Source of the DNA: Candidatus Omnitrophota bacterium
GTDB lineage: Bacteria; Omnitrophota; Gorgyraeia; Zapsychrales; Zapsychraceae
Direction: 5' to 3'
Length of the DNA stretch: 64,000 nucleotides
Assembly (NCBI GenBank): GCA_015233115.1
Contig: JADFYJ010000010.1
Location: forward strand, 5,083-69,082
A program made the translations under genes and the position numbers. Every line of letters starts with the position of its first letter. The stretch's first letter is position 1. The notes beneath the pieces were generated by a model that was given only the letters and a program-made list of their open reading frames with translations, ran no database searches and was not told where the DNA came from. This document shows positions 27,229 through 62,525 of this stretch, piece after piece.

Positions 27229-27526
27229 TTTTACCTCCTTCACCCATTCCGCAGGCAGCACCAGAAACTGTGGTTGTTTCAACCGGCCCGTCGTTGGTTG
27301 TGCTAAGAGTTGCCGCATTTTGTTGCTCAGATCGACGAGCTGCCGCTGCTTCTCTTTGCTCTGTGGTCACGCGTTTCATTCGGCGTTGCATGATGGCTTG
27401 TGCATCATGACTTTTCAACGGCGGCTGAGGCGTTTGTTCCTGCGCCCGAACCTGAGCAACGCCTGCCCAAAGAGCAGTAGCACTCAGAAGCACACTTCCC
27501 ATGATAATAAGTTTATTCTTGTTCAT
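27221..27526 (-). CDS. Small (101 aa) secreted protein of unknown function encoded immediately upstream of the MCO gene, overlapping its start by 8 nt.
   Basis: AAGGAGG RBS 5 nt before the ATG at 27526. Signal peptide MNKNKLIIMGSVLLSATALWAGVAQVRA, a Q/R/A-rich middle and a C-terminal ...SGAACGMGEGG. Confidence 0.45.
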   Translation of the reverse strand: MNKNKLIIMGSVLLSATALWAGVAQVRAQEQTPQPPLKSHDAQAIMQRRMKRVTTEQREAAAARRSEQQNAATLSTTNDGPVETTTVSGAACGMGEGGKNE

Positions 27527-35900: not shown

Positions 35901-38900
35901 AAGCTGGGCATCGGTTTCTGTCGCGTTGATCTGCCGCAAAACCACCTGACTGTGAGTCCAGGACAATTCAAAAACGCGGTCCGCGATACGCCAATCATGA
36001 TATTTTTCAATCAAACTTAAAGCTTTATCGCGCGTTTCACCCATGCCGTAAACCATATTAATAATAACGGTCTGTTCCGGTTCAAGGGACATCTGACCAC
36101 GGATCACTGTCACTGGATCCAGCACGGAGCCCTGGCTCCCGGAAAGATCATGAGACTGAGTCATTGCGTAAGGTTCAGCCAGATTATAACCGCGTCCGAT
36201 AAACTGCATACGGTCAGTTTCATAGGATACCTTTTGAATTTCAGCGTCATGCACGGACATTAAATGAAACATCCATGGCTCCTGTTCAGTAACAGACCTG
36301 GGACGACGAGAACACAAGATAGCCTGCTTTGATTTGATAATTTCAGTCTGCACAAAAAGATTACTAAACATTGGATGTAAGGCATCGGCCATATCCGGAG
36401 CCAGCACCACTTCTGAATAACTGGTCACCTCAATCACCCTCCTGCCCCGGGAACGATTGGTGATCCGCACTCGCCGCAGTTCTATATCATCTTCCGGTGA
36501 AACCACAATTTCCACATGAGTCTCCAATCCATAATCCCGCCGACGGAATTCGGCGCGTCCTTGTGAAAAAATAACTTCATAATTTTCCGGCTGTTTATGC
36601 GTGGGTTGATAGGCCGTCGACCAGAATTTTCCGCTTGCTATGTCGCGAATATAACAAAACACGCCCCAATTATCGCAAGTGGTGTCTTCCCGCCAACGGG
36701 TTACAGCCATATCCTTCCAGCGGCTGTAGCCTCCGCCCGCATTTGTTACCATGACATGATACCGGCCATTAGACAATAACTGTACTTCCGGAACCTGTGT
36801 ATGGGGACTTTTAAGTATGCGAACTGGCGACTGGGTTTCAGCGGCCAGCGCGCGAATATTGGAAAGTTCATTGACGTGAATATAAAATGGGATACTCTTA
36901 GGAATTCTCTCTTGAAGCAATAACATGTTAGCCTGAAAAAGCGGATCAGCTCTGAATCGTTTTTGCATAGGATGATCTAATAATACATATGCTAGAGCAA
37001 GTAAGCTCATCCCTTGATGGTGAGCCAAAAATGACCGGAGTATCGTACTCGACCTACCCCTCACCCGGCGTGATGGTGTATAATCAACCGCTTCATATAG
37101 ACCATACTGGCCCATCATCCCTTCACACGCTAGACGCTGTAAATTGAGACAAGCCGGTTCAGGCGTCACCATCAACGCCAGCAATGAAGCATAAGGCGCT
37201 ATAACCAAGTCTTCTGTTAATCCGCGCTTAAATCCTAATCCAGGAACACCAAACGCGCGATACTGGTAATTGAGATTCGCATCAATGGCATTATACCCAG
37301 ATTCCGAAATACCCCAAGCGACCCCAAACTGTTTTCCGTATTCAATTTGTCTTCCTACCGCGGCTTGATAAGTCTGTCCCAGCAGAGTATTTTCATACGT
37401 TGGCATGACCACCAACGGCATCAAGTATTCAAACATCGAACCGCTCCACGACAAAAGAGTTGGTTTTCCGCCGGAGGTAGTTAACAAACGTCCCAGGGCA
37501 AACCAGCTTTCCGAAGGCACTTGTCCCTGAGCGATCGCGGTAAAATAACATAATCTCGCTTCTGACGCCAAAAGATCATAAAATCCTGAATCTAATTTAC
37601 GTTCTTCCGAATAGTATCCTATAGATAACAATTTCCGTTTTACATCATAAAGAAAATCGTACTCCATCTGAGCAAAATCACCGGCTTGCCTAACTAAACG
37701 TTCAATATCGCTGATTCGTTTCAAAGCACGAGTACTTATCTCGCCTTCAACTTTTGTCAGCTCCCTAAGTGTTGGTATGCCCGTAATACCCGAATAATTT
37801 TTCGGAACCAAAAAGATTAAATCATCGAGTATATGCCGACATTGCTGAACCAGCTTTTGGGTCCACTCGATTGCTTCGGCCTCTGCGGATAGAGAAATTT
37901 TTGTATGAAATTCTTCGGCGTGCTGACCGAACGCTTCAAGCCACAATCGTACCTGCTCGAGTGTAGCCGGTTTAAATTCGTCAGCCGACTCTAAATCTTT
38001 TTCCAATTGATGAGTTGAAAACAAATTCATATCACCTATTGAATCCACCAAAACCAAAAACGTATCTTTCAAACTTTCCAGCCATCGCTCTCCTAAAATT
38101 TTGTCATCGCATAGAGCCAATAGTCCGGGCCGTAATGTCAAAAGAAAACCCGCCAGGTTGCCGCTGTCAACTGTTGAGATGTAGTTAGGAAGAAGCGGCT
38201 GCAAAGATTGTGTATCATACCAATTAAAAAAATGTCCGCGAAAACGTTTTAGCCCTGCCATGGAACGAAACGTATTTTCAGTTCGTTCCAGTAGCCTCTG
38301 CGCTGTCATGATACCAAAATCATACGCTGACAAATTAGCTAAAAGAGCCAGGCCGATATTGGTGGGTGAGGTGCGGTGTGAAATTTTAATCATCCGGGTT
38401 TCCTGGTAGTTATCAGGAGGAAGCCAGTGGTCTTCCTGCCCGACAAAGGTCTCAAAAAAATCCCAAATTTTCCGGGAAAGTTTTCGCAGAAAAAATAGTT
38501 GATTAGCGCTTAGTTTTACTTCCCTGCGGGGCATAAGCCGGCTGAGCCACCAGACACAAGCCGGTGATACCGCCCACAACAATAAAACAGGTCCGGCGAA
38601 CATCAAAGTGTGTGGCGCTGATCCGGCCAAATAAATAAACACCGAAACTGCTGTCACAGGAGCAATCCACATTAAAAGGAACGACCGAATCAAATCATTG
38701 CTGTCCCCATCCGTATCCGCATACAAATTCCATTCCAGAAACCGTTTATGAGTAATCAGCATCCGCACGACCGTACGCACGATCGCATCCAAAGTAAAAA
38801 AAGCTTCATAAGGAAGACATGCAACAGTAAAAGCCCTTTGAGCCAAACGCCCAGCCGCGGCCCGGAAGACTGTTTTTAAATGCTGTTTCCAGAAAACATC

Positions 38901-41543
38901 TTTCGACTTGTGTAATGCGTCTAAAAAGGAAATAAGCAGAGGAGGAAAAAATATCATTTCAAATACGACACACGTCCAATGCCAAGGCGAAGGAATAATC
39001 GTCCAACTCATCAGCAAAAGGGCTATTAACGCAAATGGCACTAGACTACGCCTTAAATTATCAAAAATTTTCCATTGCGACAAAAATGATAAAGTATTTT
39101 TCTGCTTGTGCCCGTCAGATGACGGAACTTTGGACCACAACCAGCCTAATAATTGCCAATCTCCGCGGATCCAACGGTGCCGACGCCTAACATCTGTACT
39201 GTAACGGAAAAGATTTTCCTCGTACAATTCGACGTTACTCAACAGTCCGGAACGGGCATAACATCCTTCCCAAAGGTCATGGCTCAAAATCTTACCTTCA
39301 GGAAACCGTCCTTTGCACGCCCTTTCAAAAATATCCAAATCATAAATCCCTTTGCCGATAAATGAACCTTCCCCAAACAGATCCTGGTAAACATCCGAAA
39401 CCGTACGGGTATAAGGATCTATCCCCGGCTCACCTGCGTATAACCTCGCGTAAAAGGACCGATTCGCTCCTGCCAGGCTGGTACTCACCCGCGGCTGAAG
39501 TATTCCGTAGCCTTCGCAGACACATTGTTTCTGCTCGTCATAACGGGCGCGGTTTAAAGGGTGCGCCATGGTTTCTACCAGCTGACGAGCACAATCACGG
39601 GGTAATTGCGTATCTGTATCCAAGGTAATGATATATTTAACATTTTTCAATACCGCCAAATCACCTACGATGAGTAAAAATTTTTCCTGGGAGCCTCCGC
39701 GCAGCAGGCCATTTAAATCCGCTAATTTCCCGCGTTTACGTTCATATCCCATCCAAATGCCTTCACAAGGATTCCAGCTCCGTGGCCGGTGGAACAGAAA
39801 AAAAATATCAGGCCTGCCTTTTTTATATTTACTGTTAAGCTCTACAATTTTTTCCTGGGTTAATCGTAGAAGCGCATCGTCATCAGGCATAGTTTCTTGA
39901 GGCGCGTCCTGAAAGTCAGTTAATAATCCAAAATGTAATTGTTCATCCTGATTAGCCAAAAACCTCACTTCCAAGGCTTCGATAAGCCGCTCTATGTTCT
40001 GTGAACTTGTGAGCATGGTGGGCACAACTATTAAGGTAAGAAATTCCGACGGAATTCCTTTCGAAAAATCCATACGCGGCAATACCTGCGGCTTGACCAT
40101 TGACATGGCCATGTAGTTGACTAGCTCTAAGGCCAATTGACTCATGGCGACAATTAAAAAAACGCCAAAAGCCGCAGCTTTCCATGCCATAACATTCATG
40201 CCATAGAGATGGATCCAAAGGACACCCATCCCCCAAAATGTTAACACGGCAACAGCCCCGAGATACAGCAACAAGGCAAATCGTTGCGCTAATTTATATG
40301 CTTTTTCTATGATTGAAAACTGGTTCCGTACAGCTTGTTCAAGTTGTGACAATCCTTTATCGATTAAATAAAAACCGACGTGAGCGGTCCGGTCACTGAC
40401 TCCGTTTTTCCCAGCCGCTTCACTTGCTAATTGAACCGCTTTTTGCGCCACCTCACTTTCAAAAATTCCGCTCCTTTTCGCTATGTTCTCAACCACATGA
40501 CGGTAGCGGTCACGAGTAGCAAAATCCATCTGAGCATAAAATCCGGCAGGATCTTTGAGTAAAAACTTTTCGACAATACTCATTGTCTCCACAAATTCAC
40601 GCCAATCCATCGCCGACAACAAACGAAGACTTCCGATGCTATTACTGATAGACACCTGATTAGCCGCTTGTTGTTGATTTTCTAAATTAACCAAATGCTC
40701 AATGGTTAATCCCGACTCTGCCAGCCACTGATTAATCCAGGTCAACGGTAAGGCCAAGGATGGACTATGCCCCTGTAAACGGCGGGTCAGCTCAGCCACA
40801 AAAGAGCTCGACATGGGGGGGGTTGACCGTGCCATGTCCGCGACGATTAAAACTAAAGTTTTAGGTTCTCTCGCGGCAACTTCCGCCATTTGATCCGCCC
40901 AAAAATCAGCCAAATTTTGATCCATTCTTCCCACCGTGATACGAGCAGCCACCCGCCGTAGATTTTCAATCAAGGCCAGCCGCAGCATAATAGGAATGGC
41001 CCACAACTCGCCCAAATTTAACAGGGTGACTTGCTGATAAGCCTTTATAAAATTATTCAAAATTTCCAGATCTATCCGTCCATCACCATGAGCAACCATT
41101 TCTAAAGCAATGTCATACACCCTCGGCAGGCCCTGCGAAGGACCATTCATTAATAGAGGCAATTCCCGATGATAACTTTTGGGTAAATGCCGCTTAGCCG
41201 TACGAACCTGCTCTTCGATCAAATAAAAATTATCCAGCAGCCATTCACCTGCCGGCGTACCTAAACGCTTGGCCTTAACCGCCTCAGTCAGCAAGGCATG
41301 AGTTTCCCCCAGTACCATTTCGTTTTCTGTCAGCCTGGTCAAAAGCAATAGTGAAGAACGTTCCGTCGTTAATTTATGCAACCTGGCCAGCGTTTTGCCA
41401 TATTGTTTCATCTGTTCACTGCTGAACAATTCTGAGCGCAGGGGAGGCTCTTCGCGCATATGTTTGGGGAGCAAAATTTTACCGCGCAAACGCCTTAATA
41501 AATGAGAAAAAAATATTTTGATATCTGTTAATCTTATTTTCAT
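32946..41543 (-). CDS. cgs: Cyclic beta-1,2-glucan synthase (Cgs/NdvB/ChvB-like), 2865 aa: N-terminal polytopic membrane region, GT84-type glycosyltransferase domain, second TM region, and a C-terminal GH94-like (alpha/alpha)6 glucan-phosphorylase domain.
   Basis: The length is almost identical to Brucella/Agrobacterium Cgs/ChvB (about 2830-2870 aa). Domain order is TM, then GT with DxD, then TM, then a six-hairpin glycosidase/phosphorylase. This very large single ORF has no repeats. Its start is 4 nt past the stop of the downstream radical SAM gene. Confidence 0.8.
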   Translation of the reverse strand: MKIRLTDIKIFFSHLLRRLRGKILLPKHMREEPPLRSELFSSEQMKQYGKTLARLHKLTTERSSLLLLTRLTENEMVLGETHALLTEAVKAKRLGTPAGEWLLDNFYLIEEQVRTAKRHLPKSYHRELPLLMNGPSQGLPRVYDIALEMVAHGDGRIDLEILNNFIKAYQQVTLLNLGELWAIPIMLRLALIENLRRVAARITVGRMDQNLADFWADQMAEVAAREPKTLVLIVADMARSTPPMSSSFVAELTRRLQGHSPSLALPLTWINQWLAESGLTIEHLVNLENQQQAANQVSISNSIGSLRLLSAMDWREFVETMSIVEKFLLKDPAGFYAQMDFATRDRYRHVVENIAKRSGIFESEVAQKAVQLASEAAGKNGVSDRTAHVGFYLIDKGLSQLEQAVRNQFSIIEKAYKLAQRFALLLYLGAVAVLTFWGMGVLWIHLYGMNVMAWKAAAFGVFLIVAMSQLALELVNYMAMSMVKPQVLPRMDFSKGIPSEFLTLIVVPTMLTSSQNIERLIEALEVRFLANQDEQLHFGLLTDFQDAPQETMPDDDALLRLTQEKIVELNSKYKKGRPDIFFLFHRPRSWNPCEGIWMGYERKRGKLADLNGLLRGGSQEKFLLIVGDLAVLKNVKYIITLDTDTQLPRDCARQLVETMAHPLNRARYDEQKQCVCEGYGILQPRVSTSLAGANRSFYARLYAGEPGIDPYTRTVSDVYQDLFGEGSFIGKGIYDLDIFERACKGRFPEGKILSHDLWEGCYARSGLLSNVELYEENLFRYSTDVRRRHRWIRGDWQLLGWLWSKVPSSDGHKQKNTLSFLSQWKIFDNLRRSLVPFALIALLLMSWTIIPSPWHWTCVVFEMIFFPPLLISFLDALHKSKDVFWKQHLKTVFRAAAGRLAQRAFTVACLPYEAFFTLDAIVRTVVRMLITHKRFLEWNLYADTDGDSNDLIRSFLLMWIAPVTAVSVFIYLAGSAPHTLMFAGPVLLLWAVSPACVWWLSRLMPRREVKLSANQLFFLRKLSRKIWDFFETFVGQEDHWLPPDNYQETRMIKISHRTSPTNIGLALLANLSAYDFGIMTAQRLLERTENTFRSMAGLKRFRGHFFNWYDTQSLQPLLPNYISTVDSGNLAGFLLTLRPGLLALCDDKILGERWLESLKDTFLVLVDSIGDMNLFSTHQLEKDLESADEFKPATLEQVRLWLEAFGQHAEEFHTKISLSAEAEAIEWTQKLVQQCRHILDDLIFLVPKNYSGITGIPTLRELTKVEGEISTRALKRISDIERLVRQAGDFAQMEYDFLYDVKRKLLSIGYYSEERKLDSGFYDLLASEARLCYFTAIAQGQVPSESWFALGRLLTTSGGKPTLLSWSGSMFEYLMPLVVMPTYENTLLGQTYQAAVGRQIEYGKQFGVAWGISESGYNAIDANLNYQYRAFGVPGLGFKRGLTEDLVIAPYASLLALMVTPEPACLNLQRLACEGMMGQYGLYEAVDYTPSRRVRGRSSTILRSFLAHHQGMSLLALAYVLLDHPMQKRFRADPLFQANMLLLQERIPKSIPFYIHVNELSNIRALAAETQSPVRILKSPHTQVPEVQLLSNGRYHVMVTNAGGGYSRWKDMAVTRWREDTTCDNWGVFCYIRDIASGKFWSTAYQPTHKQPENYEVIFSQGRAEFRRRDYGLETHVEIVVSPEDDIELRRVRITNRSRGRRVIEVTSYSEVVLAPDMADALHPMFSNLFVQTEIIKSKQAILCSRRPRSVTEQEPWMFHLMSVHDAEIQKVSYETDRMQFIGRGYNLAEPYAMTQSHDLSGSQGSVLDPVTVIRGQMSLEPEQTVIINMVYGMGETRDKALSLIEKYHDWRIADRVFELSWTHSQVVLRQINATETDAQLFGHLAGFIIYAHASLRADPAVLIQNRRGQSGLWGSAISGDLPMVILQIGDLANVEIVRQMVQAHAYWRLKGLAVDLVIWNEALSGYRQLLQEQIMGLISATVQSQIAHNSGEIFVRPAEQISDEERILFQSVARAIISDRRGTLANQIYRHNFSEFPVEQFIPVKTFRPAIAPSLGETRHDLILFNGLGGFTPDGREYVICLSSDQVTPAPWVNVLANAHFGTIISENGLAYTWSENAHEFRLSPWNNDPVNDLTGEAFYLRDEETGQVWSPAPQPVHSRHPYLIRHGFGYSVFEHDEGGLHSELWVYVALESPVKFSVLKIRNISGRPRRLSATGYVEWVLGDLRSKTVMHVHTEVDPINGAIYARNFYNSEFSDIIAFFSTNDMGRTICADRAEFLGRNGSIHKPDALLRAHLSGRTGSALDPCAAIQVPFELADGEEREIVFTLGAGHNVEQVKNLVRNFCGSSGAQEALDAVNKYWTHTIGAVQVETPDSSLNVLANGWLIYQTLACRLWGRSGYYQSGGAFGFRDQLQDVMALNHCEPRLMREHLLLCASHQFLEGDVQHWWHPPSGRGVRTHCSDDYLWLVYATCHYVLSIGDTGVLDELVPFLRGRMVTVEEDSYYDLPKQSSEKVSLYEHCQRAIIKSLSIGQHGLPLMGSCDWNDGMNCVGQQGKGESVWLGFFLYDVLTQFIKMAQLRDDSAFVEICRAQLIQLKQNIEKNGWDGEWYRRAYFDDGALLGSAGNSECQIDSIAQSWSVLSGAADPDRGRKAMTSLNQRLVHRDTQIIQLLDPPFDKSGMNPGYIKGYVPGVRENGGQYTHAAIWAAMAFARLGDSRMAWELLDMINPVNHGKSLEEINIYKVEPYVVAADVYAVAPHVGRGGWTWYTGSAGWMYRLLLEFLLGLRLNVNQLSIEPCLPPEWKTFKIHYRYRDTLYHIEVSQILLGSGLAGVLVDGHLQENKMIELIDDHQDHRVEVRMIAENSQ

Positions 41544-52634: not shown

Positions 52635-52688
52635 AAATAGTGACAGGCACCAATTTTTTAATAACAAAATTGGTGCCTGTCACTATTT
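52635..52688 (-). terminator. Long-stem (about 23 bp) perfect hairpin immediately after the hypB stop, followed by a U-rich tract on the minus strand. Probable operon terminator.
   Basis: AAATAGTGACAGGCACCAATTTT-loop-AAAATTGGTGCCTGTCACTATTT, then ATTTATTTGATTTGTTTT on the minus-strand transcript. Confidence 0.6.
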
Positions 52689-53361
52689 ATTTAAAACATT
52701 CCGCAATCTTATGAACTAAAACACAATCTTGGACAAAATCAATCCATGAAGCAAAGCCCTCTCCCGAACAACTATCAACAGTAATGACTTCTCCTTTTTT
52801 ATTCAATTGTTTAAACGCGGCAAGAGCTATCGCTAAATTAAAATTTGTATGCTCAATCAGTTTTAATTTGGTGATAACTAATATCTCTGCTTCTGAAAAA
52901 AGCAAAGGATATTTCTCAACCTTGTCATCTCCTTCTGTGACGCTTAACACCGCGATCTTTCCATCCTCACCAATATCAAATTCTGCGGGACAGACCAGAT
53001 TGCCGATGTTTTCCACAAAAATCAATTCCGGGTTAACATCATTGATCAATTCTTTTAAAGCGGTATTAACCAAATGCGCGTCTAAATGACAGGCGTTACC
53101 CGTATTGATCTGATATGCCGCCACTCCCATTTTTTCAATCCGCGCCGCGTCTTTCGTAGTCGCGATATCTCCTTCGATGACCGCCATTTTAATTGTTTTA
53201 CCTAAAAGCGCGATCGTCTGTTCCAGCAATGTCGTCTTACCTGCGCCGGGAGAACCAATAATATTGAGCATGGTGATGCCGTGTTTTCTTAGCAATAACC
53301 GGTTTTCTTCTGCCCAGGCGTCGTTCGCGCTTAATAATTTATCCATCACATTAATTTTCAT
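52687..53361 (-). CDS. hypB: Hydrogenase nickel-incorporation GTPase HypB.
   Basis: GSPGAGKTT P-loop and the CxxC...C metal site of HypB. Context next to hypA. Confidence 0.9.
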   Translation of the reverse strand: MKINVMDKLLSANDAWAEENRLLLRKHGITMLNIIGSPGAGKTTLLEQTIALLGKTIKMAVIEGDIATTKDAARIEKMGVAAYQINTGNACHLDAHLVNTALKELINDVNPELIFVENIGNLVCPAEFDIGEDGKIAVLSVTEGDDKVEKYPLLFSEAEILVITKLKLIEHTNFNLAIALAAFKQLNKKGEVITVDSCSGEGFASWIDFVQDCVLVHKIAECFK

Positions 53362-53701
53362 CTTCTACCTCCAGTTTATGAATGTAGGGAGCACGCCGAG
53401 CTTCGACCACTGACCGGCACGAATGGCAAATCGGACATAAGCCCTCGATGGAGTCGTGATCGTCGAACTCAAGCGCGCATTGAGAACAAAAATATTTACT
53501 GATAACCCGCCGCACAGAGACTTTCGCCTGATTCAAGCACTGATCCGAAAGATGACTAAGAACAAACTCTAAATTGTCCGCGCTTACTGAATTGTACGGA
53601 CCACAGATGATCTCGATCTCCCTGACCCGGTTAAATCGATGAAAAAGTTTTAATTCCTTAACCTGCTGAACGATTCCTTCTACAAAAGCCAACTCGTGCA
53701 T
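53351..53701 (-). CDS. hypA: Hydrogenase nickel-insertion protein HypA.
   Basis: MHELAFVEGIV N-terminus (Ni site MHE) and the CSQC...CPICHS zinc motif. Confidence 0.85.
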   Translation of the reverse strand: MHELAFVEGIVQQVKELKLFHRFNRVREIEIICGPYNSVSADNLEFVLSHLSDQCLNQAKVSVRRVISKYFCSQCALEFDDHDSIEGLCPICHSCRSVVEARRAPYIHKLEVEDEN

Positions 53702-53711
53702 GATTCCTCCT

Positions 53712-54473
53712 TTACAAATTGAAAACTTTAATTATAATCCCACAAAAAAAGATAACTAACCCCGCGGTCGCATGTGAAAAGACGGCAATACCCTTAGCGT
53801 GTTTCTCAACCTTAAAGGAAACCGCTTTCAATCCAGACAAAGACAAAAAAACCATAACCTGCATAGTGATGACGGTTACCACGCTAAACGCAGCAGCCAC
53901 CATAAACACCGCTTGCCAATTCGATTTTAAAGCAGGATACATAATGAGAGGAATCAACGGTTCACAAGGGCCAAAGAAAAAAATTATAAAGAGGATCCAC
54001 GGAGTCAAACTAGCTTGCCCTGCTTCTGCCTCGTGCATATGCAAATGATCATGATGATGATTGTGAACGTGAAAATGTTCTTTCCCCTGATCATGGACAT
54101 GCTCATGCCCATGCTCTTGGCTCCGGATCCTTTTGATGGCGAACCAAACAAAATAGGTCAAACCGAAAGCAATCAAAAACCACGTTGTGATTTCCCCGCG
54201 GACTGATTCAATGAATTTCAGTCTAACCATGGTTATGCCTGCCGTTATGCCGATAAATCCCAGCATAACGGATGACGCGACATGCCCGATCCCGCAGATC
54301 AGCGTGATGACAAATGTTTTTCTTTTATTCCAATGCCGGGCCTGAGCTAAGGCGGCAAAAGGAATATAATGATCCGGCCCCAAAAGAGTATGCATAAAGC
54401 CTACGGTTAAAGCTGTCAATGTCAAAATTCCCATACCAGGATCCATAGTCTTTTCTCCTATTTTTTTATTCAA
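53712..54473 (-). CDS. Polytopic nickel/cobalt transporter (NicO/HupE-UreJ-like) with a His-rich cytoplasmic loop.
   Basis: GFMHTLLGPDHY motif (HPxxGxDH-like). Central loop HGHEHVHDQGKEHFHVHNHHHDHLHMH. Embedded between tatC and hypA. Confidence 0.6.
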   Translation of the reverse strand: MNKKIGEKTMDPGMGILTLTALTVGFMHTLLGPDHYIPFAALAQARHWNKRKTFVITLICGIGHVASSVMLGFIGITAGITMVRLKFIESVRGEITTWFLIAFGLTYFVWFAIKRIRSQEHGHEHVHDQGKEHFHVHNHHHDHLHMHEAEAGQASLTPWILFIIFFFGPCEPLIPLIMYPALKSNWQAVFMVAAAFSVVTVITMQVMVFLSLSGLKAVSFKVEKHAKGIAVFSHATAGLVIFFCGIIIKVFNL

Positions 54474-55215
54474 CTAACGGTTCTTGCCCGATCATTCTTT
54501 GGGCCCGTTGATAAATCACCTGAGAAACAATGATCGATACAACATATAAAAACAAAAGAGGCACCGCCATACAAAATTGACTAAAAATATCTGGACTGGG
54601 AGTCAATACACCCGCGGCAATAAAAATAAGCACCACGGCATACCGCCATTTATTCACCAAGACTGCTGGGGTGATCAGCCCGATCTGTGTCAAAAAAGCC
54701 ATAACAATAGGGAGTTGAAACACCGCCCCAAACGCGAGACACATTGACGCCACAAAAGAAACATACGAACTGATCGTAAGGGTTGGCGTCATAAAATCAT
54801 GACCAAATGAAAGCAGAAATTTAATCCCTGCCGTGATCACAAAAGTAAAACCAAAATATACGCCGGTAACAAACAACAGGAAAGATGCCGGCATGATGAT
54901 ATAAACATACTTGCGCTCACGCGGCGCCAACCCCGCCGCGATGAACTGCCATATCTCAAAGATGACATAAGGGGAAGACAAAAATAATCCAGCCCAAAAT
55001 GCCACTTTTAAGTAAGTCATAAAAGCTTCTGATGGATCAATGAATATCAAATGACCGACTGGCTTAGCAATGACCCGCAAAATATTATCCGTGTACATAT
55101 ACGCGCCTACAGTCATGACCAAAACCACCAAGCTGGCCCGAATCACCCTTTGTCTGAGTTCATCGATATGTTCCAGAATCGAAAGGTGCCGGTTGTTTAT
55201 TTTCATATATTTCAC
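54466..55215 (-). CDS. tatC: Twin-arginine translocase subunit TatC.
   Basis: Six TM helices with conserved TatC motifs (HLxELRxR-like N-terminus, PSPDIFSQ). Confidence 0.9.
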   Translation of the reverse strand: MKYMKINNRHLSILEHIDELRQRVIRASLVVLVMTVGAYMYTDNILRVIAKPVGHLIFIDPSEAFMTYLKVAFWAGLFLSSPYVIFEIWQFIAAGLAPRERKYVYIIMPASFLLFVTGVYFGFTFVITAGIKFLLSFGHDFMTPTLTISSYVSFVASMCLAFGAVFQLPIVMAFLTQIGLITPAVLVNKWRYAVVLIFIAAGVLTPSPDIFSQFCMAVPLLFLYVVSIIVSQVIYQRAQRMIGQEPLVE

Positions 55216-55225
55216 CCTGCCGTTC

Positions 55226-55456
55226 TTATGAACTTTTTTTAGAATTCAATTCCAACGTTTTACCATTTGTATCGACGGGTTTAGTATCCATAGTCATTTC
55301 CGCGTCAATGGTTTCCTTGATTTCACTAGTCGCTTTTTTAAATTCCCGCATGGACTTCCCCAGTGTGCGCGCCAATTCCGGTAAATTTTTTGAACCAAAC
55401 AACAGTAAAATAATAAACAAAATTACCATTAATTCACCCATGCCTAATCCAAACAT
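55226..55456 (-). CDS. tatA: Twin-arginine translocase TatA/E-family protein (copy 1).
   Basis: MFGLGMGELMVILFIILLLFG...F-K amphipathic helix. GGAGG RBS. Confidence 0.85.
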   Translation of the reverse strand: MFGLGMGELMVILFIILLLFGSKNLPELARTLGKSMREFKKATSEIKETIDAEMTMDTKPVDTNGKTLELNSKKSS

Positions 55457-55526
55457 ACAGCCTCCTTTTTAAAGTAAAAAGTTAAAATTAAAAAGTGAAA
55501 GTAAAGCAAAACCAAAAACGTAAAAA

Positions 55527-55694
55527 TTATTTTTTTGATTCGGCCAGATTCTTTTCTTCTGTATCCCGGCCTGCTTTTTTGAATTCTCTGATGGACTCTC
55601 CTAACGACCGGGCTAAATCCGGAAGCCGGCGCGCGCCAAACAACACCAAAATAATCATCAAAATCACTAGTAATTCGCCCATACCTAAATTCAT
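55527..55694 (-). CDS. tatA: Twin-arginine translocase TatA/B-family protein (copy 2). The start is MNLGMGELL at 55694, with a GGAGG RBS.
   Basis: [37 protein letters not shown]. The track ORF begins upstream at 55730, but the RBS supports 55694. Confidence 0.8.
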
Positions 55695-55744
55695 AAAACC
55701 TCCATTTTTTAAAAACCACCCAGGGTCCACCGCGTCAGTGGACT

Positions 55745-56194
55745 TTAAGCCGCCGACGCGGTGATTAACTCTATTACTATTTCAACAACCTTTGGAACCA
55801 TCACCGCGACTTCGGGGGTTAGGTCCAATGACCACTCAATTCGATAAGGTTCAATTCCGATTACTGTAACCGGCAACTCTGTCGTTCGACCGGTCAAAGC
55901 TAATACGTGTTGCAAATTAAACCCATGCAAAGAACCCATAAACTCTTTCTCTGCACACTCATCGAGAGAAAAAGAATATATAGTGCCAGGCTTAGCTCCC
56001 CCTTTACAAGCATCTATGACAATCATTTGGTCTGCCTCTTCAATCTGCGGCAACACATCAAGGACCGCCGTGCCTGCATCCACAATGCAGACATTTTCGT
56101 CCTGGAGGAGTTCTGCGAGGACATGCGCCGCATGAACACCAACCCCTTCATCAGCTAATAAAAGATTACCTAAGCCCAGCACTAAAGTTTTCAC
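55745..56194 (-). CDS. [NiFe] hydrogenase maturation endopeptidase (HyaD/HybD/HoxM family).
   Basis: [18 protein letters not shown] motif and size. Confidence 0.85.
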
Positions 56195-56226: not shown

Positions 56227-57660
56227 TTAACAAGTTACTGCGGGCACTTCCAATACCATAGGTTCCTCTTTGGGCCGCATCACATGAACCGCGCATGATA
56301 GGCAAGGATCAAAAGAATGAATCACCCTCAGCACTTCAATCGGCTGTGTCGGATCCATAACTGGCGTGCCAACCAAAGCTTGTTCAATTGGACCACGAAC
56401 ATTTTTGTCATCCTGCGGTGAAGCATTCCAACAAGTGGGAGTAATCACCTGATAATGGGCAATTGTCCCACCGGCAATTTTCACCCAATGGCCCAAAGCG
56501 CCCCGCGGAGCCTCAGTCAAGCCAATACCTTCTCCATCAGAAAGCAGATTATTCTGCTCATACGATGGCGCACCCATGGTCAGCTGATCCAGCCACGTTA
56601 ACATCGCTTCTGCCACTTTTAACGTTTCCTGCGCCCGAGCTAAATGCCGATCCATAACAGAAACGCCATTTTGATAGTCTCCGGTCACCCACATCCGAGC
56701 CAGAGCTCCGGTTTCAAAAGGTTTACCCTGATGACGCGGCGCTTTCAACCAGGAATATCCGTTTGTTTTTGGATATACCGGTTGGGTATCTCCGCTACGC
56801 GGCGTCAAATTATTAGTCGCATCCGCATACCACGAGTGAGTGACTGACTCCGTAATCTGATTTAAAAACACATTATTAGGATTCCCTTTTGTCGCGTTTT
56901 CAACACACCCGCGATGGAACAATTTATCCGTCCCGGAAGCATTCAAATCAAATACGCCATATGCCAATAAATTTTTCCATCCGCCTCCAATGTTGAAATA
57001 ATCGGAATAGATCTGGCTCAAGGCAATAGAATCCGGGATATAAATATTTCTGATAAAATCCAAGAGTAAATTCAACTGAGTTCTGAATTTGGTAATCATC
57101 GCCGCATTGGGCACCACAGTATGCCCGCCAGAAATAATCGCCGCAGTAATCGGCATGCGACCGCTCAATAACGCCCCCATCTCATGCGCTCTGCGTCGGG
57201 CTGCAACAGCTTGCACAAAATGATCCATGATCGGGTAAGTTGGATTTGATGCGGGAAAACGCATATCCACATTATAAGCCGGGGTCCATGGGCTGGTTTG
57301 CGGGCCAGCGACATAATCCAGTAAAGACAGCAAATAAAAATGCAAAATATGCGATTGGACATAATTTGAGCCCAAGGTTAAGTTGCGTAAAATACGGCCA
57401 TTATCCGGCACGCTCCGTCCTGACGCGTTATCCAGAGCCATGGACGCGGCGAGCCCATGAGAAATCGGACACACTCCGCATATGCGCTGAGTAAGAATAG
57501 GCGCGTCCCACGGATGGCGGCCGGCGAGTATCTTTTCAAAACCGCGAAACAGCGTTCCAGTACATTTCGCGTCGGTAACCCGGTTTTGATCAATCGTTAC
57601 TTCCACTTTCAAGTGACCTTCAATCCGGGTCACCGGATCCATAATTGTAATAGTTGCCAT
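56227..57660 (-). CDS. [NiFe] hydrogenase large (catalytic) subunit.
   Basis: N-terminal L1 motif RIEGH...RICGVCPISH. C-terminal DPCLSCAVH followed by an 18-aa extension for proteolytic maturation. Confidence 0.9.
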   Translation of the reverse strand: MATITIMDPVTRIEGHLKVEVTIDQNRVTDAKCTGTLFRGFEKILAGRHPWDAPILTQRICGVCPISHGLAASMALDNASGRSVPDNGRILRNLTLGSNYVQSHILHFYLLSLLDYVAGPQTSPWTPAYNVDMRFPASNPTYPIMDHFVQAVAARRRAHEMGALLSGRMPITAAIISGGHTVVPNAAMITKFRTQLNLLLDFIRNIYIPDSIALSQIYSDYFNIGGGWKNLLAYGVFDLNASGTDKLFHRGCVENATKGNPNNVFLNQITESVTHSWYADATNNLTPRSGDTQPVYPKTNGYSWLKAPRHQGKPFETGALARMWVTGDYQNGVSVMDRHLARAQETLKVAEAMLTWLDQLTMGAPSYEQNNLLSDGEGIGLTEAPRGALGHWVKIAGGTIAHYQVITPTCWNASPQDDKNVRGPIEQALVGTPVMDPTQPIEVLRVIHSFDPCLSCAVHVMRPKEEPMVLEVPAVTC

Positions 57661-57688: not shown

Positions 57689-59671
57689 TTAATTATCTGA
57701 CGTGTTCGACATATTTATTCTCACCACACTTTTTTCGACTATTTCCAGTCCGGATACAGCTCTCACTCTTCCCGGCTGAGAACTAACACCAGCCGCTCTG
57801 ACTGACCAAGAACCGTCAGAAGAAATCGTCGTTGTGGTGTATATTTTTCCGCTTGTCGCATTACTGACAGTCACTCTCGCTCTAGCCTTACCCTGACCGG
57901 ACACTGTTAAAGTTCTGTTATGATAATCCCATACCGCTCTGGTTATCGTCAGAACCGTAGATGGCGGCGGTGGAGGTGGCGGCAGCGGCACATTACTGAC
58001 AGACACCGTCAGGCTTTGTCCTTGCGACGAAGCTATTATTGTCGACGGTATCGATGCTGGATTTGTCAGCGTGAACATCCATTGGCCATTCGCCGTAACG
58101 GGGGTTTGACCTAGCGTTATGCCGCTGGAATTTTTGATGACAACAACTGCCGCTGCCACACCTGTCCCTTGAACATTTAATTGATTAGACCCCGCAATCC
58201 ATTGCGCGTTGCTAATGGCAAACACGACCGGAGGCGGCGGGGGTGGAGGCACATTGCTAACCTGGACCGTCAGACTTTGCCCTTGGGACGTTGCCGTCAC
58301 TGTCGCCGGTATCGTAGCCGGATTTGTCAGCGTGTACGTCCACTGACCATTCGCCGCAATCGTGGTTTGCCCTAACGTGGTGCCGCCAGCATTTTGGATG
58401 ACCACAACTGCCGCTGCCGCACCTGTCCCTTGTACATATAATTGATTAGAAGCCGCTATCCATTGCGCGTTGCTGATGGTAAACACCAGTGGCGGCGGCA
58501 TTGCCGGAACATTACTGACGGGTGCAAATAAAACATCCGCATTTAATTTAGCCACAATCGAAACGGGCACAGCCGCCGGGTTATTCACCGTCAACGTCCA
58601 GGCTCCGGATGAATTCGGAACAGACTGCCCGATCAGCGCACCTAAATATTCTTCAACAATGACGGTTGAAGCAGGTGTCCCTTTCCCTGAAACAGTTAAC
58701 TGTTTTGATGTATTATTCCAGGCGGCAGATACGACCTCAAATAGAGCCGGACCAGTCCCTGTCACGGCAGTCAGACTATACATAGGAGAAAATCCGTCAG
58801 GAAATCGGCTGTCCGTACATCCCATACACTGCGAATTAGCGCCAATGCACCAATTCGTCCCATTGTTCCATAAACGTTTAGGACAATCTGCTTGAGTCGA
58901 AGGGCCTTTACAACCAAGATTTCTCATACACAAAGAATCTACCCCGAAGGTCGTGGCTTTACTGCGATCTTGCCGCGGACAATTTTCATGGACATTATTG
59001 TTCTCCCCGCCATACAGGGCAGATGGTCTTCCTGAACTATCCAATGCCGGTATAATACCAGCAATCAGTTGCGCAATGGTCCAGATAATCCAATCCGGAT
59101 GGGCAGGACAGCCAGCGATATTGATGGTTGGTTTGCCGATGGCAGCACTTAAGCTTTGAATTTGTGTCGGATTCGGTGCAGCGGCAGATATACCACCAAA
59201 ACTAGCGCAAGTCCCAATCGCTAAATTAGCGATGGAATTGGCTGACAACTGACGTACAGCGTCTAACGCGGTTATTTCCTGCCCGTTTTCTGTCCACAAA
59301 AGACAGGTATTACCATTAAATGCCGTCGGGATTCCGCCTTCGACAGCCAAAACGTAAGGATTTTTGGTCGCATTACGGAGATTGGCCACCGCTAAATCAC
59401 CAGCCGCGCCCATAAGATTGGGATGAAATGCCAGATCAATATGATTGATCAAAAGATCTGCGACATCTAAAGGTTCAGTAGCGGATATACGATTCGCCAA
59501 TGATACGGTACAACCGGTGCAGGTCGCTGTGCTCAGCCAAATGACTGTGGGTATCCCCGGCCCGCTGGCGGCAAACGCCTTTTGCAGCTGGCCGATCGCC
59601 GAGGCGTCCAACCCCAATAATGCTGCTGAAGAAACACAATACTTTAAAAATTCTCTCCGACTTATTCGCAT
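57689..59671 (-). CDS. [NiFe] hydrogenase small subunit with a Tat signal peptide and an unusual C-terminal extension of about 300 aa made of tandem Ig-like repeats separated by polyproline linkers.
   Basis: MRISRREFLKYCVSSAALLGL (twin-Arg). Fe-S cluster cysteine motifs (ATCTGCTVS, GTCASFGG, GCPAHPD, CxxC-rich distal region). Three repeats with VSNVPPPPPPP linkers. No hydrophobic C-terminal anchor. Confidence 0.85.
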   Translation of the reverse strand: MRISRREFLKYCVSSAALLGLDASAIGQLQKAFAASGPGIPTVIWLSTATCTGCTVSLANRISATEPLDVADLLINHIDLAFHPNLMGAAGDLAVANLRNATKNPYVLAVEGGIPTAFNGNTCLLWTENGQEITALDAVRQLSANSIANLAIGTCASFGGISAAAPNPTQIQSLSAAIGKPTINIAGCPAHPDWIIWTIAQLIAGIIPALDSSGRPSALYGGENNNVHENCPRQDRSKATTFGVDSLCMRNLGCKGPSTQADCPKRLWNNGTNWCIGANSQCMGCTDSRFPDGFSPMYSLTAVTGTGPALFEVVSAAWNNTSKQLTVSGKGTPASTVIVEEYLGALIGQSVPNSSGAWTLTVNNPAAVPVSIVAKLNADVLFAPVSNVPAMPPPLVFTISNAQWIAASNQLYVQGTGAAAAVVVIQNAGGTTLGQTTIAANGQWTYTLTNPATIPATVTATSQGQSLTVQVSNVPPPPPPPVVFAISNAQWIAGSNQLNVQGTGVAAAVVVIKNSSGITLGQTPVTANGQWMFTLTNPASIPSTIIASSQGQSLTVSVSNVPLPPPPPPPSTVLTITRAVWDYHNRTLTVSGQGKARARVTVSNATSGKIYTTTTISSDGSWSVRAAGVSSQPGRVRAVSGLEIVEKSVVRINMSNTSDN

Positions 59672-59691: not shown

Positions 59692-61179
59692 TTAAAAATA
59701 CAAATCCCTTTCTCCCCGGGAAATTCGTTCATAATATCGCATAAAATGCGGATACGAATTCGGCGCCGTATTCCGAATCTCATTAATCTCTTTTTCTAAA
59801 AGTCCTTTAGCCAGCTCTTGAGTTTTAGCACTGCCAAAATCATCAACCCATTCGCGAAAGGTCAGCACAGCATTGAGTTTACAAAATTTCCCTTCTTTGC
59901 CAGAACGCAAAAGATCCATGATACATTTTCCCGTTCTGTTGCAACGGTAGCCAGCTGTACAAAAAGACGTGATATGTCCGAGACGGGTAAATTCCTGGAT
60001 CACTTCATCCAGACTACGGGTATCCCCCAACATAAATTGCTGACGGCGGCCTTCCTGGGTCATACTGCCGTCGCTGTAAGCGCCAAGGCCAATCTTGGTG
60101 GACGCATCCGTCTGCGTAATACCTAATTCAATTGATGCGCGTTTGAGTTCAGGGGTTTCGCGGCTAGTAATGATCATGCCGGCATGAGGCACCGCCAGTC
60201 TTAATACCATCATTATTTTTTTAAATTCTTCGTCGGAAACTTTGTGTTTTGACTGATGGGTAAACGGAACATTTTCCGCCGGTTCAAGCCGCGGAAAAGA
60301 AATAGTATGCGCGCCAATGCCGAATTTTTTTTCCAATTCGATATTATGCGCAACCAAACCTAATACTTCGTATCTCCAGTCATACAGCCCAAAAAGTGCG
60401 CCAATACCCACATCATCAATTCCAGCTTCGAGTGCCCGGTGCATAGCATAAAGCCGCCACAGATAATTCGCTTTAATGGTGTTTTTCGGGTGGAGGGATT
60501 GGTACGTCGGATGGTGATATGTTTCTTGAAACACTTGATAGGTCCCAATACCAGCATGGCCTAAAATTTTCAAGTCATCCACACAAAGGGGCGCGGCATT
60601 GACATTAACCCGCCGGATCTGTCCATACCCTACTCTGGCTTTAACGCGCACATCGTATATTGTACGGATAGTATCGGCCATATAATGCACATCATTGTCC
60701 GGATGTTCGCCGTAAACCACGATCAGCCGTTTATGCCCTATCTGACCCGCCAGTACTTTGGTTTCCTCCGTTACCTCATCCAGCGTTAAGGTTTTACGCT
60801 GAGTTTTAATATTCGAACAGCGAAAACCGCAATAGACACAATCATTAACGCAGGCATTACTCAAATAAAGCGGCGCGAACGTGACAATACGGTTATCGTA
60901 AACTTTCTTTTTTACCGCCAGAGCGGTTTCTTTCATTTTTTCAAGCAAGTACGAATCTGTCACCCGCATCAGCAGAGCTGTTTCTTCCAACGTAAGAGTC
61001 TCAACATCCAAAGATTTTTGTAGGATGTCTAGTATTATTCTTTTATCAGGAATTTTTGTGAAGCAAAGAGCGGCATCCATCCGTTCCTCATCAATAAAAG
61101 ATTTTCCGCGAGTCAGATACTTTTCAATTTCATCTTCATTAATCCGGGTTTGAGCCCAAGATTTTGTCATGATATCCAT
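59692..61179 (-). CDS. HydG-like radical SAM enzyme (tyrosine-lyase/ThiH-HydG family) with a divergent C-terminal Cys-rich auxiliary-cluster domain.
   Basis: APLYLSNACVNDCVYCGF (CxxxCxxC, HydG/ThiH type). The 495-aa length includes a C-terminal HydG-like domain, FCTAGYRCNRTGKC...FCKLNAVLTF. For comparison, the canonical HydG motif is CTACYR...CHPNA. Confidence 0.7.
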   Translation of the reverse strand: MDIMTKSWAQTRINEDEIEKYLTRGKSFIDEERMDAALCFTKIPDKRIILDILQKSLDVETLTLEETALLMRVTDSYLLEKMKETALAVKKKVYDNRIVTFAPLYLSNACVNDCVYCGFRCSNIKTQRKTLTLDEVTEETKVLAGQIGHKRLIVVYGEHPDNDVHYMADTIRTIYDVRVKARVGYGQIRRVNVNAAPLCVDDLKILGHAGIGTYQVFQETYHHPTYQSLHPKNTIKANYLWRLYAMHRALEAGIDDVGIGALFGLYDWRYEVLGLVAHNIELEKKFGIGAHTISFPRLEPAENVPFTHQSKHKVSDEEFKKIMMVLRLAVPHAGMIITSRETPELKRASIELGITQTDASTKIGLGAYSDGSMTQEGRRQQFMLGDTRSLDEVIQEFTRLGHITSFCTAGYRCNRTGKCIMDLLRSGKEGKFCKLNAVLTFREWVDDFGSAKTQELAKGLLEKEINEIRNTAPNSYPHFMRYYERISRGERDLYF

Positions 61180-62525
61180 TAAAGTGCTCCTTCCGTTATA
61201 GACTGTTCCATCAGAAAAATTTTTTCACTCACTCCCAAATCGGTAGGCGCTCGTCCCAAAGAGCGGAGTAAGGCGAGAATATCCTGAATTTGACTGTTGA
61301 TCGATTCAGAGACATGAGCCCGGTTTGGATAAAGCGAATATAAAGCGCGATATTTAGCCGGCGTCACATTCAACATGACCGAATTAGCTCCGCAAAGCAG
61401 GCCTTCTTTGCGGGCATCAGGATGGAGAGTTTCAAATGCGGTCGTAACTAAAATTTTAGCATTTTCCGGATCAAGGATCCTTGCGATTGCCAAAACCTTA
61501 AATATTTTATCCTTATCCCACGGTAGATACCCGGCAATCGGCGTATTAGGGTGAGGCAAAAATGGTCCAAACGAAAACATCTCAGCGTTTAACTCTTTTG
61601 CCAGAAAAATATCATTGAAAACATCATCGGGTGTTTGACCTGGGATTCCAACTAAGGCTCCGGTCATAATCAAATACCCTAGTTCCCCTGCCCTCTTCAG
61701 GTGGGCGATCCGGGTGTCCAAATTACGGCCGGGATGAAGACGGCTATATACCAATGGATTCGAGGTTTCAAAACGCATCAACATAGCCCGGGCGCCCGCA
61801 TCGTATACGGTTTTCAATCCATCAAAACCAATTTCCCCAAAACTAATCGCGATCAGCACTCCAGCTTGTTTTTTTATTTCTCTTATAATTTTGGCTATTT
61901 TATCCGGGGAGAAGAAAGAGTCTTCTCCGCTCTGCAAAACCAAAGCTTTAAATCCGTAATCTTTGATGGCGGAAAGGGCAGTATCAACAATTTCCTGCTC
62001 ACTCATCCGATAGCGCTTGATTTGTTGATTATGGGAAGAAATACCGCAATAAAAACAATTTTGGGAACAAATATTGGAGATTTCAATAATACCGTGAACA
62101 CAACATGAATTTTTTAAATATTTTTGCCGCAAAAAATTTGCGCATTTATAGATGAAAGCATTAGCCGCTTTTTCTTCAACAGAAAAAAGATAATGCAGGT
62201 CTGAACGCGATAAAGAACTTCGCTCTAAAGCTCGGTCTAAAATACGGGAAAGTTTAGTATCATGATATCCTTCCTCAAAATAAAGTTTGGAAAGGCGCAC
62301 ATCCACTTCCTGCAATTCAAAAAAGGTTTCTTTCCATAAAGCCAGTACTTCCAAAGCCTGGGCAGGAGCAACCTTTTCAATAACATAGCCGCCTTGCGCG
62401 TAAATATAATCCCCGATGTTCAAATTAATCAAATCATTAATGGCCCTCTTTTCTTCTCCAAAGTAATCGACAACAACTGTCTTATCATTGATCGCCTTTA
62501 CCTGACCAGGAATCGCATAACACAT
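61179..62525 (-). CDS. Fusion protein: an N-terminal HypC/HupF-like hydrogenase-maturation scaffold domain (MCYAIPGQV...IGDYIYAQGGYVIEKV) joined to a HydE/BioB/PylB-type radical SAM domain.
   Basis: Residues 1-80 align by eye with HypC/HybG (MC-x-x-[IV]P at the N-terminus, GDYVLVHVGFAI-like core). Residues from about 140 onward carry CSQNCFYC (CxxxCxxC) and the biotin-synthase-like TIM-barrel pattern. The stop overlaps the HydG-like start by 1 nt. Confidence 0.65.
   Translation of the reverse strand: MCYAIPGQVKAINDKTVVVDYFGEEKRAINDLINLNIGDYIYAQGGYVIEKVAPAQALEVLALWKETFFELQEVDVRLSKLYFEEGYHDTKLSRILDRALERSSLSRSDLHYLFSVEEKAANAFIYKCANFLRQKYLKNSCCVHGIIEISNICSQNCFYCGISSHNQQIKRYRMSEQEIVDTALSAIKDYGFKALVLQSGEDSFFSPDKIAKIIREIKKQAGVLIAISFGEIGFDGLKTVYDAGARAMLMRFETSNPLVYSRLHPGRNLDTRIAHLKRAGELGYLIMTGALVGIPGQTPDDVFNDIFLAKELNAEMFSFGPFLPHPNTPIAGYLPWDKDKIFKVLAIARILDPENAKILVTTAFETLHPDARKEGLLCGANSVMLNVTPAKYRALYSLYPNRAHVSESINSQIQDILALLRSLGRAPTDLGVSEKIFLMEQSITEGAL

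Follow-up and report, generated by a model that had tools for sequence, protein, structure and literature searches.

A Tat-exported [NiFe] hydrogenase of an Omnitrophota bacterium with four Ig-like domains on its small subunit, a possible tether in the cell envelope

The stretch of DNA analysed here (hereafter the window) comprises 64,000 nucleotides of a Candidatus Omnitrophota bacterium (GenBank assembly GCA_015233115.1, contig JADFYJ010000010.1, positions 5,083 to 69,082) and contains a [NiFe] hydrogenase operon whose small subunit (57689..59671) is the subject of this report. This protein of 660 aa is formed by a twin-arginine translocation (Tat) signal, an Fe-S core and a tail of four Ig-like domains; unless a locus is named, positions are those of the window and the features lie on its minus strand. 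Tails of this type are, judging by sequence comparison, a family trait of an apparently undescribed clade of group-1a-like hydrogenases. The tail is structural and holds no cofactor, and the function that we favour for it, with a probability of about 45%, is that of a spacer with a basic docking tip that would tether a soluble periplasmic hydrogenase in the cell envelope. An earlier reading of the same DNA, made without database searches (the sequence-only reading), had described a hydrogenase small subunit with a beta-sandwich tail, which is upheld by the Pfam core domains, the Big_6 matches and the AlphaFold2 (AF2) fold. It missed the modularity of the tail across the family and the basic pattern of the terminal domain.

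Architecture of the small subunit

The open reading frame (ORF) is a real one and its product is 100% identical to an entry found in the homologue search, 'MAG: hydrogenase small subunit [Candidatus Omnitrophica bacterium]' (MAG, metagenome-assembled genome). The Tat signal peptide comprises approximately residues 1-34 (59570..59671) and was recognised by sequence inspection: the twin-arginine (RRxFxK) motif is MRISRREFLK, and the presumed cleavage site lies between AFA and AS. Residues R5, R6, F8 and L9 of the signal are nearly invariant across the 96 homologues of alignment A1. The Fe-S core follows at about residues 35-300 (58772..59569), with the Pfam domains Oxidored_q6 (aa 51-202) and NiFe_hyd_SSU_C (aa 225-298) both exceeding their cutoffs and NCBIfam TIGR00391 (hydA) scoring 210 bits against a cutoff of 179.5. 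All cluster-ligand Cys and His of the core are invariant in the same alignment, including H228, C231, C248 and C254 at the distal cluster and C263, C275, C282 and C285 at the medial one, an assignment that we take from established knowledge of the homologous Desulfovibrio enzymes. Four Cys at the medial position would imply a 4Fe-4S medial cluster as in the [NiFeSe]-type enzymes. The protein is exported via Tat with the full small-subunit core of a group 1 [NiFe] hydrogenase.

The Pfam domain Big_6 (PF17936, bacterial Ig domain) matches the tail in four stretches with a score of 79.5 bits (cutoff 27.6), and a custom domain hidden Markov model (HMM) sets four units at residues 309-388, 395-474, 482-561 and 572-652, in place of the three tandem repeats counted before. 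The proximal domain R1 (58508..58747) is followed by a PPP linker (aa 392-394, 58490..58498) and by R2 (58250..58489), a spacer-type domain with no charged residues. A linker of seven prolines (aa 475-481, 58229..58249) leads to R3 (57989..58228), the duplicate of R2 with one charged residue, and an LP7 linker (aa 563-570, 57962..57985) to the terminal domain R4 (57716..57958), which is basic, with 15 charged residues and a net charge of +7. The longest proline run is thus seven residues, and the P7-P10 linkers of the sequence-only reading were not found. The polyproline tracts, that of the P7 linker included, are encoded by mixed CCN codons, which argues that the linkers are selected at the protein level.

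The only close pair among the four domains is R2 and R3, 75% identical in protein and 81% in DNA, and Tandem Repeats Finder reported a single array (58005-58486, period 261, 1.8 copies). R1 is 35% identical to R2 and R3, and for R4 the identity to the rest of the tail domains is 11-19% without gaps and reaches 31% in alignments. A mutual identity of 60-80% among the repeats therefore does not describe the tail, and an identity of about 80% in DNA holds for R2 and R3 and not for the other domains.

The tail, in which S, T, N, Q, A and V are abundant, contains no Cys and a single His, so there is no room in it for Fe-S clusters or haem and it does not transport electrons. A role as an electron wire was ruled out on the same grounds, neither Cys nor haem motifs being present. 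Derivation of the domains from another gene of the window was also discarded, as the Big_6-type domain HMM, run over the window ORFs, matched the small-subunit ORF alone.

Fold of the tail and relation to adhesin extender domains

AF2 models built with the family alignment comprise four 7-stranded beta-sandwiches, with a predicted local distance difference test score (pLDDT) of 88-97 in the full model (about 93-97 for R1) and a mean of 93 for the tail alone. The linkers were of low confidence and a hinge at residues 298-306 fell below 50. The best Foldseek matches were Ig arrays of adhesin extenders (5irb, SiiE 2yn5, Bap 7c7u and GhpA), all with a probability of 1.0. An HMMER scan with the tail over 1.84 billion representatives gave 323 matches at E<=1e-3, of which the best outside hydrogenases were proteins of 3,400-7,069 aa with 15-32 copies of the domain. 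On these models the tail domains are assigned to the Big_6/BIg type with a 7-stranded fold, as the proposed Ig-like nature of the repeats had anticipated.

The tail resembles the extender regions of giant RTX/Bap-type adhesins (MpIBP RII, SiiE, LapA, Bap) in its tandem 7-stranded Ig-like domains of about 80-100 aa, and in the arrangement of variable-copy spacers followed by a distinct terminal module. It differs from them in having four copies only, on a redox enzyme exported by Tat and not by a type I secretion system (T1SS), and in its junctions, which are not of the acidic Ca2+-binding kind (0-1 charged residues in R2 and R3). Polyproline would take the place of the Ca2+ junctions as stiffener of the tail. 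Membership of the RTX giant adhesins was ruled out by the absence of RTX repeats and T1SS genes in the window scans, the lack of Ca2+ junctions and the number of domains. A C-terminal sorting domain of the type IX secretion system (T9SS) was discarded as well, since such domains belong to Sec-exported cargo of T9SS-bearing (Bacteroidota-type) organisms.

The integrity of the repeats was also considered, the sequence-only reading having warned of a recombination-prone region and an assembly hazard. A collapsed or expanded repeat, a chimeric join or an annotation error might be suspected in a protein known from a single MAG contig whose R2 and R3 are 81% identical in DNA. The longest exact word common to R2 and R3 is nevertheless only 17 nt, 43 codons separate the two domains, 22 through synonymous and 21 through non-synonymous changes, and independent assemblies from other samples encode tails of 3-5 domains in the same order. 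These three results make an artefact very unlikely; the reading frame is moreover unbroken and all four domains fold with pLDDT >90. The R2/R3 pair is best read, from its sequence divergence, as an old and selected duplication, for which the hazard is minor.

Class of the enzyme and absence of a membrane anchor

The large subunit (56227..57660, 477 aa; Pfam NiFeSe_Hases 7.8e-116) contains the motifs RIEGH and RICGVC and a C-terminal DPCLSCAVH followed by an 18-aa extension for proteolytic maturation. The Cys pairs of RICGVC and DPCLSC are its N- and C-terminal Ni-binding pairs. The C-terminal motif encodes Cys and not selenocysteine, and there is no in-frame TGA. NCBIfam NF033181 (NiFeSe_hydrog) scored 584 bits against a cutoff of 600, compared with 289 for Hyb and 248 for Hya. 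The best match of the large subunit in the PDB was the [NiFeSe] enzyme 5jsu_B (6.8e-119), with 401 bits for [NiFeSe] enzymes versus 302 bits for standard [NiFe] enzymes; the best matches of the small subunit were the [NiFeSe] proteins 2wpn_A (1.5e-63) and 3ze6_A, in alignments that end at residue ~305. By sequence similarity the enzyme is classified in group 1 as a 1a/[NiFeSe]-like, all-Cys variant, and the Cys of its motif makes it a [NiFe] and not a [NiFeSe] member.

The best-scoring solved relatives of both subunits are HysAB of Desulfovibrio vulgaris Hildenborough and the enzyme of Desulfomicrobium baculatum (PDB 2wpn, 5jsu, 1cc1). Features shared with this type are the Tat signal on the small subunit, the short large subunit, the four-Cys medial cluster, the lack of both TM (transmembrane) anchor and cytochrome b, and an operon of small subunit, large subunit and protease. 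Differences are the Cys in place of selenocysteine in DPCxxC, a large subunit (MATITIMD...) without lipobox and the absence of a cytochrome c3 gene near the operon. Unlike every solved hydrogenase, the small subunit ends in an array of about 360 aa formed by four Ig-like domains.

No TM-grade hydrophobic stretch was identified in the small subunit, the maximum Kyte-Doolittle mean over 19 residues being 1.48 overall and 0.73 in the last 120 aa, and a hydrophobic C-terminal helix, sought by hydropathy, was not found. The scanned ORFs of the window gave no Pfam match to a cytochrome b (Ni_hydr_CYTB). The sequence-only reading was correct in both these absences, and no missed TM anchor or cytochrome b gene was found downstream. 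Its view of the tail as a substitute for a membrane anchor was not supported: the closest relatives (2wpn, 5jsu, 1cc1) are soluble, and the nearest tail-less relatives among the genome loci listed, most of which were group-1a loci without a tail, lack a TM anchor too. To our knowledge, group-1a/[NiFeSe]-type enzymes never have a TM anchor or cytochrome b. Given soluble closest relatives, the missing helix and cytochrome b are normal in this lineage and the tail is an addition rather than a replacement of an anchor.

The cytochrome-b-linked membrane-bound groups (1c/1d) were ruled out for lack of a C-terminal TM helix and of a Ni_hydr_CYTB gene. Their members Hyd-1 and Hyd-2 of E. coli and MBH of Cupriavidus necator share the Fe-S core fold and Tat export with the window enzyme and likewise present a C-terminal extension past the core that sets the location of the enzyme. 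In them, however, the extension is a single TM helix docking a cytochrome b or HybB, neither of which the window enzyme has, and its HMM and PDB scores against these uptake types are much lower.

Distribution of tails in the family

The family counts refer to the 120 best homologue clusters of the small subunit. All 120 contain 80-420 extra residues past the core and no TM segment, and the same domain of about 80 aa was identified in 105, with one copy in 46 clusters, two in 40, three in 5, four in 12 and five in 2; the search for related extensions that the sequence-only reading had proposed thus gave an abundant return. Where the source was named, the tailed homologues came from uncultured Omnitrophota, 'Deltaproteobacteria'/Thermodesulfobacteriota, Deferrisomatales and Nitrospinales. 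The look-up of cluster members returned no cultured organism, all tailed homologues in the sequence sets searched being from uncultured bacteria. The literature searched on Ig-like or extended small subunits and on group-1 hydrogenases of Omnitrophota held no description of Ig-tailed small subunits, and annotation pipelines label the tailed proteins merely 'hydrogenase small subunit'.

The C-terminus of the small subunit is in this clade a modular docking point, accepting 1-5 Ig domains of the Big_6 type, other Ig types or 1-4 haem motifs. Sister small subunits with the same core (L008-L013 and L005/P0074; 55-66% core identity among the loci listed) carry their extension at the same insertion point as the window tail, right after the core end ...FSP(F/M)Y. 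Their modules differ from the Big_6 type: an Ig domain of the ASH/HYDIN type in L005 and P0074, and 1-4 'GHP...CxxCH' haem-binding units in L008-L013. In L008 (8253-9176) and L009-L013 the 3' end of the gene encodes these units as 1-4 short repeats, 'P.GHP....SC.SCH', with c-type haem-binding motifs. These haem-motif-tailed relatives are Tat-exported Fe-S subunits from Desulfobacteraceae, Syntrophobacteraceae and Acidobacteria MAGs and are the nearest ones without an Ig tail among the loci listed.

The identity of each domain depends on its position. In the close Omnitrophota-like homologues the first domains best match first domains (60-70%) and the last domains best match last domains (56-59%). 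The window R1 has no clear first-domain partner, its best match being the fourth domain of P0002 (48%), and R4 shares the charged, basic character of the relatives' terminal domains, with its best single match in the third domain of P0011 (44%). The middle domains are best matched inside their own protein (63-97%), as in the window protein (75%), P0003 (97%) and P0012 (89%), which points to repeated, independent and recent duplications.

A charge pattern accompanies these positions. Of 80 residues, 0-2 are charged in the middle domains of the Omnitrophota-like group; the terminal domain has 10-21 charged residues and a net charge of +4 to +9 (+7 in the window). Across the family the mean net charge is about +6 for the last or only domain and about 0 for first and middle domains, and the last domain is more positive than the first in 58 of the 59 multi-domain proteins (Wilcoxon p=9e-11).

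In alignment A2 the charged-type domains of other lineages (P0007, P0012, P0013, P0018, P0023-P0030 and others) present one Cys in a '...VPCRV...' strand and another in a trailing 'NAPxxC(V/L/G)', at which many two-domain proteins terminate exactly. The pair probably forms an intradomain disulfide; both Cys are missing from the window tail.

Proposed role of the tail

Known hydrogenases are positioned by a TM helix with cytochrome b, by a lipid anchor or by free diffusion with cytochrome c3. Positioning and acceptor coupling of periplasmic hydrogenases decide whether the oxidation of H2 conserves energy, and an architecture of adaptor, variable spacers and basic tip leads to the testable hypothesis of a fourth strategy. 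A Tat-exported soluble periplasmic enzyme of group 1a type would oxidise H2 and pass electrons from the Ni-Fe site through the three Fe-S clusters of the small subunit, the distal one last, to an external acceptor not encoded nearby. A short flexible hinge would link the core to a beads-on-a-string tail of four Ig-like domains and polyproline linkers, in which the first domain would be a fixed adaptor and the near-uncharged middle domains would set the length, their number being altered by duplication. The basic last domain would dock on an anionic component of the envelope (membrane surface, cell wall or acidic partner) and so keep a hydrogenase that would otherwise diffuse freely at a set position and distance. 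With general figures, about 3.5-4 nm for an Ig domain and 0.31 nm for each polyproline-II residue, the extended tail is estimated at about 20 nm, of the order of the Gram-negative periplasm.

We infer the tether or spacer function and the docking target from this architecture, and the suggestion of the sequence-only reading that the enzyme is periplasmic or envelope-tethered, with a non-canonical attachment, is a reasonable one. Several observations weigh on the other side. No anchoring motif (lipobox, SLH, LysM, sortase or PEP-CTERM signal, hydrophobic end) is recognisable in the tail. The polyproline linkers are confined to the window protein and do not occur in its relatives. The inter-domain geometry of the AF2 models is not reliable (predicted template modelling score, pTM, 0.45-0.47), so the stiffness and length of the tail are estimates from general knowledge, and the Wilcoxon test of charge makes no correction for relatedness among the proteins. 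Among relatives with one domain only, 46 in number, the basic domain adjoins the core near the expected distal cluster, a placement that would suit partner docking or cluster shielding at least as well as a tether.

The docking of a redox partner is the main rival, in which the Ig domains, chiefly the basic one, would bring to the distal cluster a specific acidic partner, for instance a multihaem cytochrome or some other oxidoreductase of the envelope. The small-subunit C-terminus lies, by homology with the Desulfovibrio enzymes, at the electron-exit side, and besides the single-domain relatives there are the sister lineages L008-L013, whose haem motifs at the same position indicate a site used for electron-acceptor modules, and the two-domain relative L004, followed by a 9-haem SLH-anchored cytochrome. 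We nevertheless hold partner docking unlikely: no partner gene is conserved across the six operons inspected, no cytochrome is encoded in the window, and the variable, near-uncharged, fast-duplicating middle domains with their proline linkers resemble spacers and not a specific interface. Gating, protection or oligomerisation through fold-back of the basic terminal domain, onto an acidic patch around the distal cluster, in the same enzyme molecule or in an adjacent one, would agree with the conserved basic charge of the last or only domain, with the net charge of -4 of the core and with the docking of cytochrome c3 on Desulfovibrio hydrogenases through basic-acidic complementarity, an established precedent. 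It is improbable, as confident contact of the tail with the core is absent from the AF2 models (the hinge and pTM values are those above) and, in the window protein, three intervening domains and stiff polyproline linkers would make it geometrically awkward.

Little weight is given to surface display, by which the enzyme would be moved to or through the outer membrane and the adhesin-like tail would project the hydrogenase or stick the cell onto a host or mineral. The fold and the closest sequence relatives of the tail are the extender domains of giant surface adhesins, its residue composition given above agrees, and Omnitrophota have been proposed as host-dependent nanobacteria (PMC10066038), an epibiotic lifestyle that display would fit. 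Tat is however the only secretion signal, the window scans revealed no T1SS, T5SS (type V) or T9SS signature and no nearby secretion genes, an O2-sensitive Fe-S enzyme outside the cell would have no obvious electron return path, and the same tails occur in Desulfobacterota-type MAGs without such a lifestyle. Equally low is the standing of neutral accretion, or of a generic aid to stability or solubility, with promiscuous Ig domains tolerated at a permissive C-terminus. The C-terminus of this clade does accept Big_6 Ig domains, ASH/HYDIN Ig domains and haem motifs alike, but position-specific orthology and the charge pattern persist across lineages and copy numbers, R2 and R3 have diverged substantially at synonymous sites with frame and fold intact, and the tail is kept in more than 100 clusters.

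The tether with a basic tip therefore remains the reading we prefer. A bolder form of it, which we regard as distinctly unlikely, is a molecular ruler, where duplication would tune the number of domains and the basic tip would grip the outer membrane, the cell wall or a neighbouring cell and fix the height of the enzyme. Such a ruler would be a new cofactor-free wiring of periplasmic hydrogenases into extracytoplasmic electron-transfer chains, where other lineages rely on a TM helix, a lipid or a cytochrome fusion, and in epibiotic Omnitrophota it would allow H2 harvest at the cell-cell interface. For the immobilisation of enzymes on electrodes, a soluble [NiFeSe]-like hydrogenase that is tethered by nature and has a handle free of cofactors could also be of interest.

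The operon and the search for redox partners

The operon is encoded entirely on the minus strand in the order histidine kinase, HypC-HydE fusion, HydG-like protein, small subunit, large subunit, HycI, TatA, TatA, TatC, nickel transporter, HypA and HypB. The large subunit is followed by the maturation endopeptidase of the HycI/HybD family (55745..56194; Pfam HycI 2.5e-24), and the order small subunit, large subunit, HycI is kept in the related loci inspected (L001-L004, L087 and L088) and in many other genome loci. Two TatA/B/E-family proteins of 67 aa (55527..55730; Pfam TatA_B_E 3e-20) and 76 aa (55226..55456; 3.4e-20) and TatC (54466..55215; Pfam TatC 1.1e-66) come next. HycI and the nickel genes thus flank a complete Tat translocase (54466-55730) within the operon, and a TatA-TatA-TatC block is also found 3' of HycI in L001 (14090-15283), an Omnitrophota relative with a five-domain tail. 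The translocase of the operon may be a dedicated exporter for a very large folded cargo.

Between TatC and HypA lies a His-rich polytopic membrane protein of 253 aa (53712..54473; weak Pfam DsbD_2), a putative Ni/Co transporter of UreH/NicO/TauE-like type and the sole polytopic membrane protein of the operon. It contains a His-rich loop of 30 residues (HGHEHVHDQGKEHFHVHNHHHDHLHMH) and is 'hypothetical' at NCBI, with homologues named nickel/cobalt exporter, TauE/SafE, NicO or RcnA. It is probably the nickel importer of the hydrogenase operon; a cytochrome b was ruled out, as no solved hydrogenase cytochrome b matched at E<=10 and the homologues are NicO/TauE proteins. The nickel metallochaperone HypA (53351..53701; NCBIfam TIGR00100 3.5e-12, under the curated cutoff) and the nickel-insertion GTPase HypB (52687..53361; TIGR00073, 259.7 bits against a cutoff of 121) complete the operon.

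No ORF of a CxxCH-bearing cytochrome occurs anywhere in the window, and no cytochrome b or c was identified in the six related operons (the loci named above), with the exception of a protein of 726 aa in L004 (13431-15611; GCA_900174595.1, FWPV01000136.1). A conserved operon-encoded redox partner was consequently discarded, none being present among the six loci. The L004 protein, encoded directly 3' of an operon for a hydrogenase with two Ig domains, is cytochrome c7/c3-like, with nine CxxCH motifs, and has three SLH domains for binding to the cell wall. It could serve a tailed hydrogenase as a wall-anchored electron acceptor. Together with L008, where four haem motifs are fused to the small subunit, its sequence suggests that cytochrome c partners exist within the clade. 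The only other candidate periplasmic electron-transfer domain noticed in the window belongs to an ORF of 396 aa (7844-9034), an unusual combination of a calcineurin-like metallophosphoesterase and a cupredoxin/COX2-like domain.

The HydG-like and HypC/HydE-like pair

Directly upstream of the small subunit is a HydG-like radical S-adenosylmethionine (SAM) enzyme (59692..61179; NCBIfam TIGR03955, 427.7 bits against a cutoff of 312), preceded by a fusion of a HypC domain with a HydE-like radical-SAM enzyme (61179..62525; Pfam HupF_HypC 1.6e-13 and Radical_SAM; TIGR03956, 246.7 bits against a cutoff of 254.6). The fusion architecture was identified in more than 120 Omnitrophota clusters. Orthologues of the HydG-like protein are present in L085 and L086, and the three proteins are 62-66% identical and share a C-terminal motif, SFCTAGYRCxRTGKC...FC, which differs from the canonical HydG motif CxxCx22C. 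In these two Omnitrophota contigs (L085 10001-13480 and L086 10001-13467) the genes immediately upstream of the pair are those of a group-4 Mbh/Mrp-type [NiFe] hydrogenase, HycI and HypA.

The window ORF scans revealed no separate HypC, HypD, HypE, HypF or HydF and no [FeFe] hydrogenase, and L001, the Omnitrophota relative with an Ig-tailed enzyme, carries ordinary HypF/C/D/E instead of the pair. The two proteins may constitute a radical-SAM route by which a HypC-like carrier receives CO/CN ligands for [NiFe] enzymes. Searches of the literature gave nothing on HydG/HypC/HydE fusions or on FeFe-type maturases linked to [NiFe] clusters.

Other observations in the window

Two large ORFs outside the operon were noted. 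One encodes 1426 aa (23038-27318) and combines a multicopper oxidase with four FN3 domains and Golvesin_C, being the second redox-type enzyme of the window that bears an Ig/FN3-like array. The other encodes 2865 aa (32946-41543) and comprises GT2, glucoamylase-like and GH94 (supersandwich plus catalytic) domains, the architecture of the cyclic beta-1,2-glucan synthases, which make periplasmic glucans.

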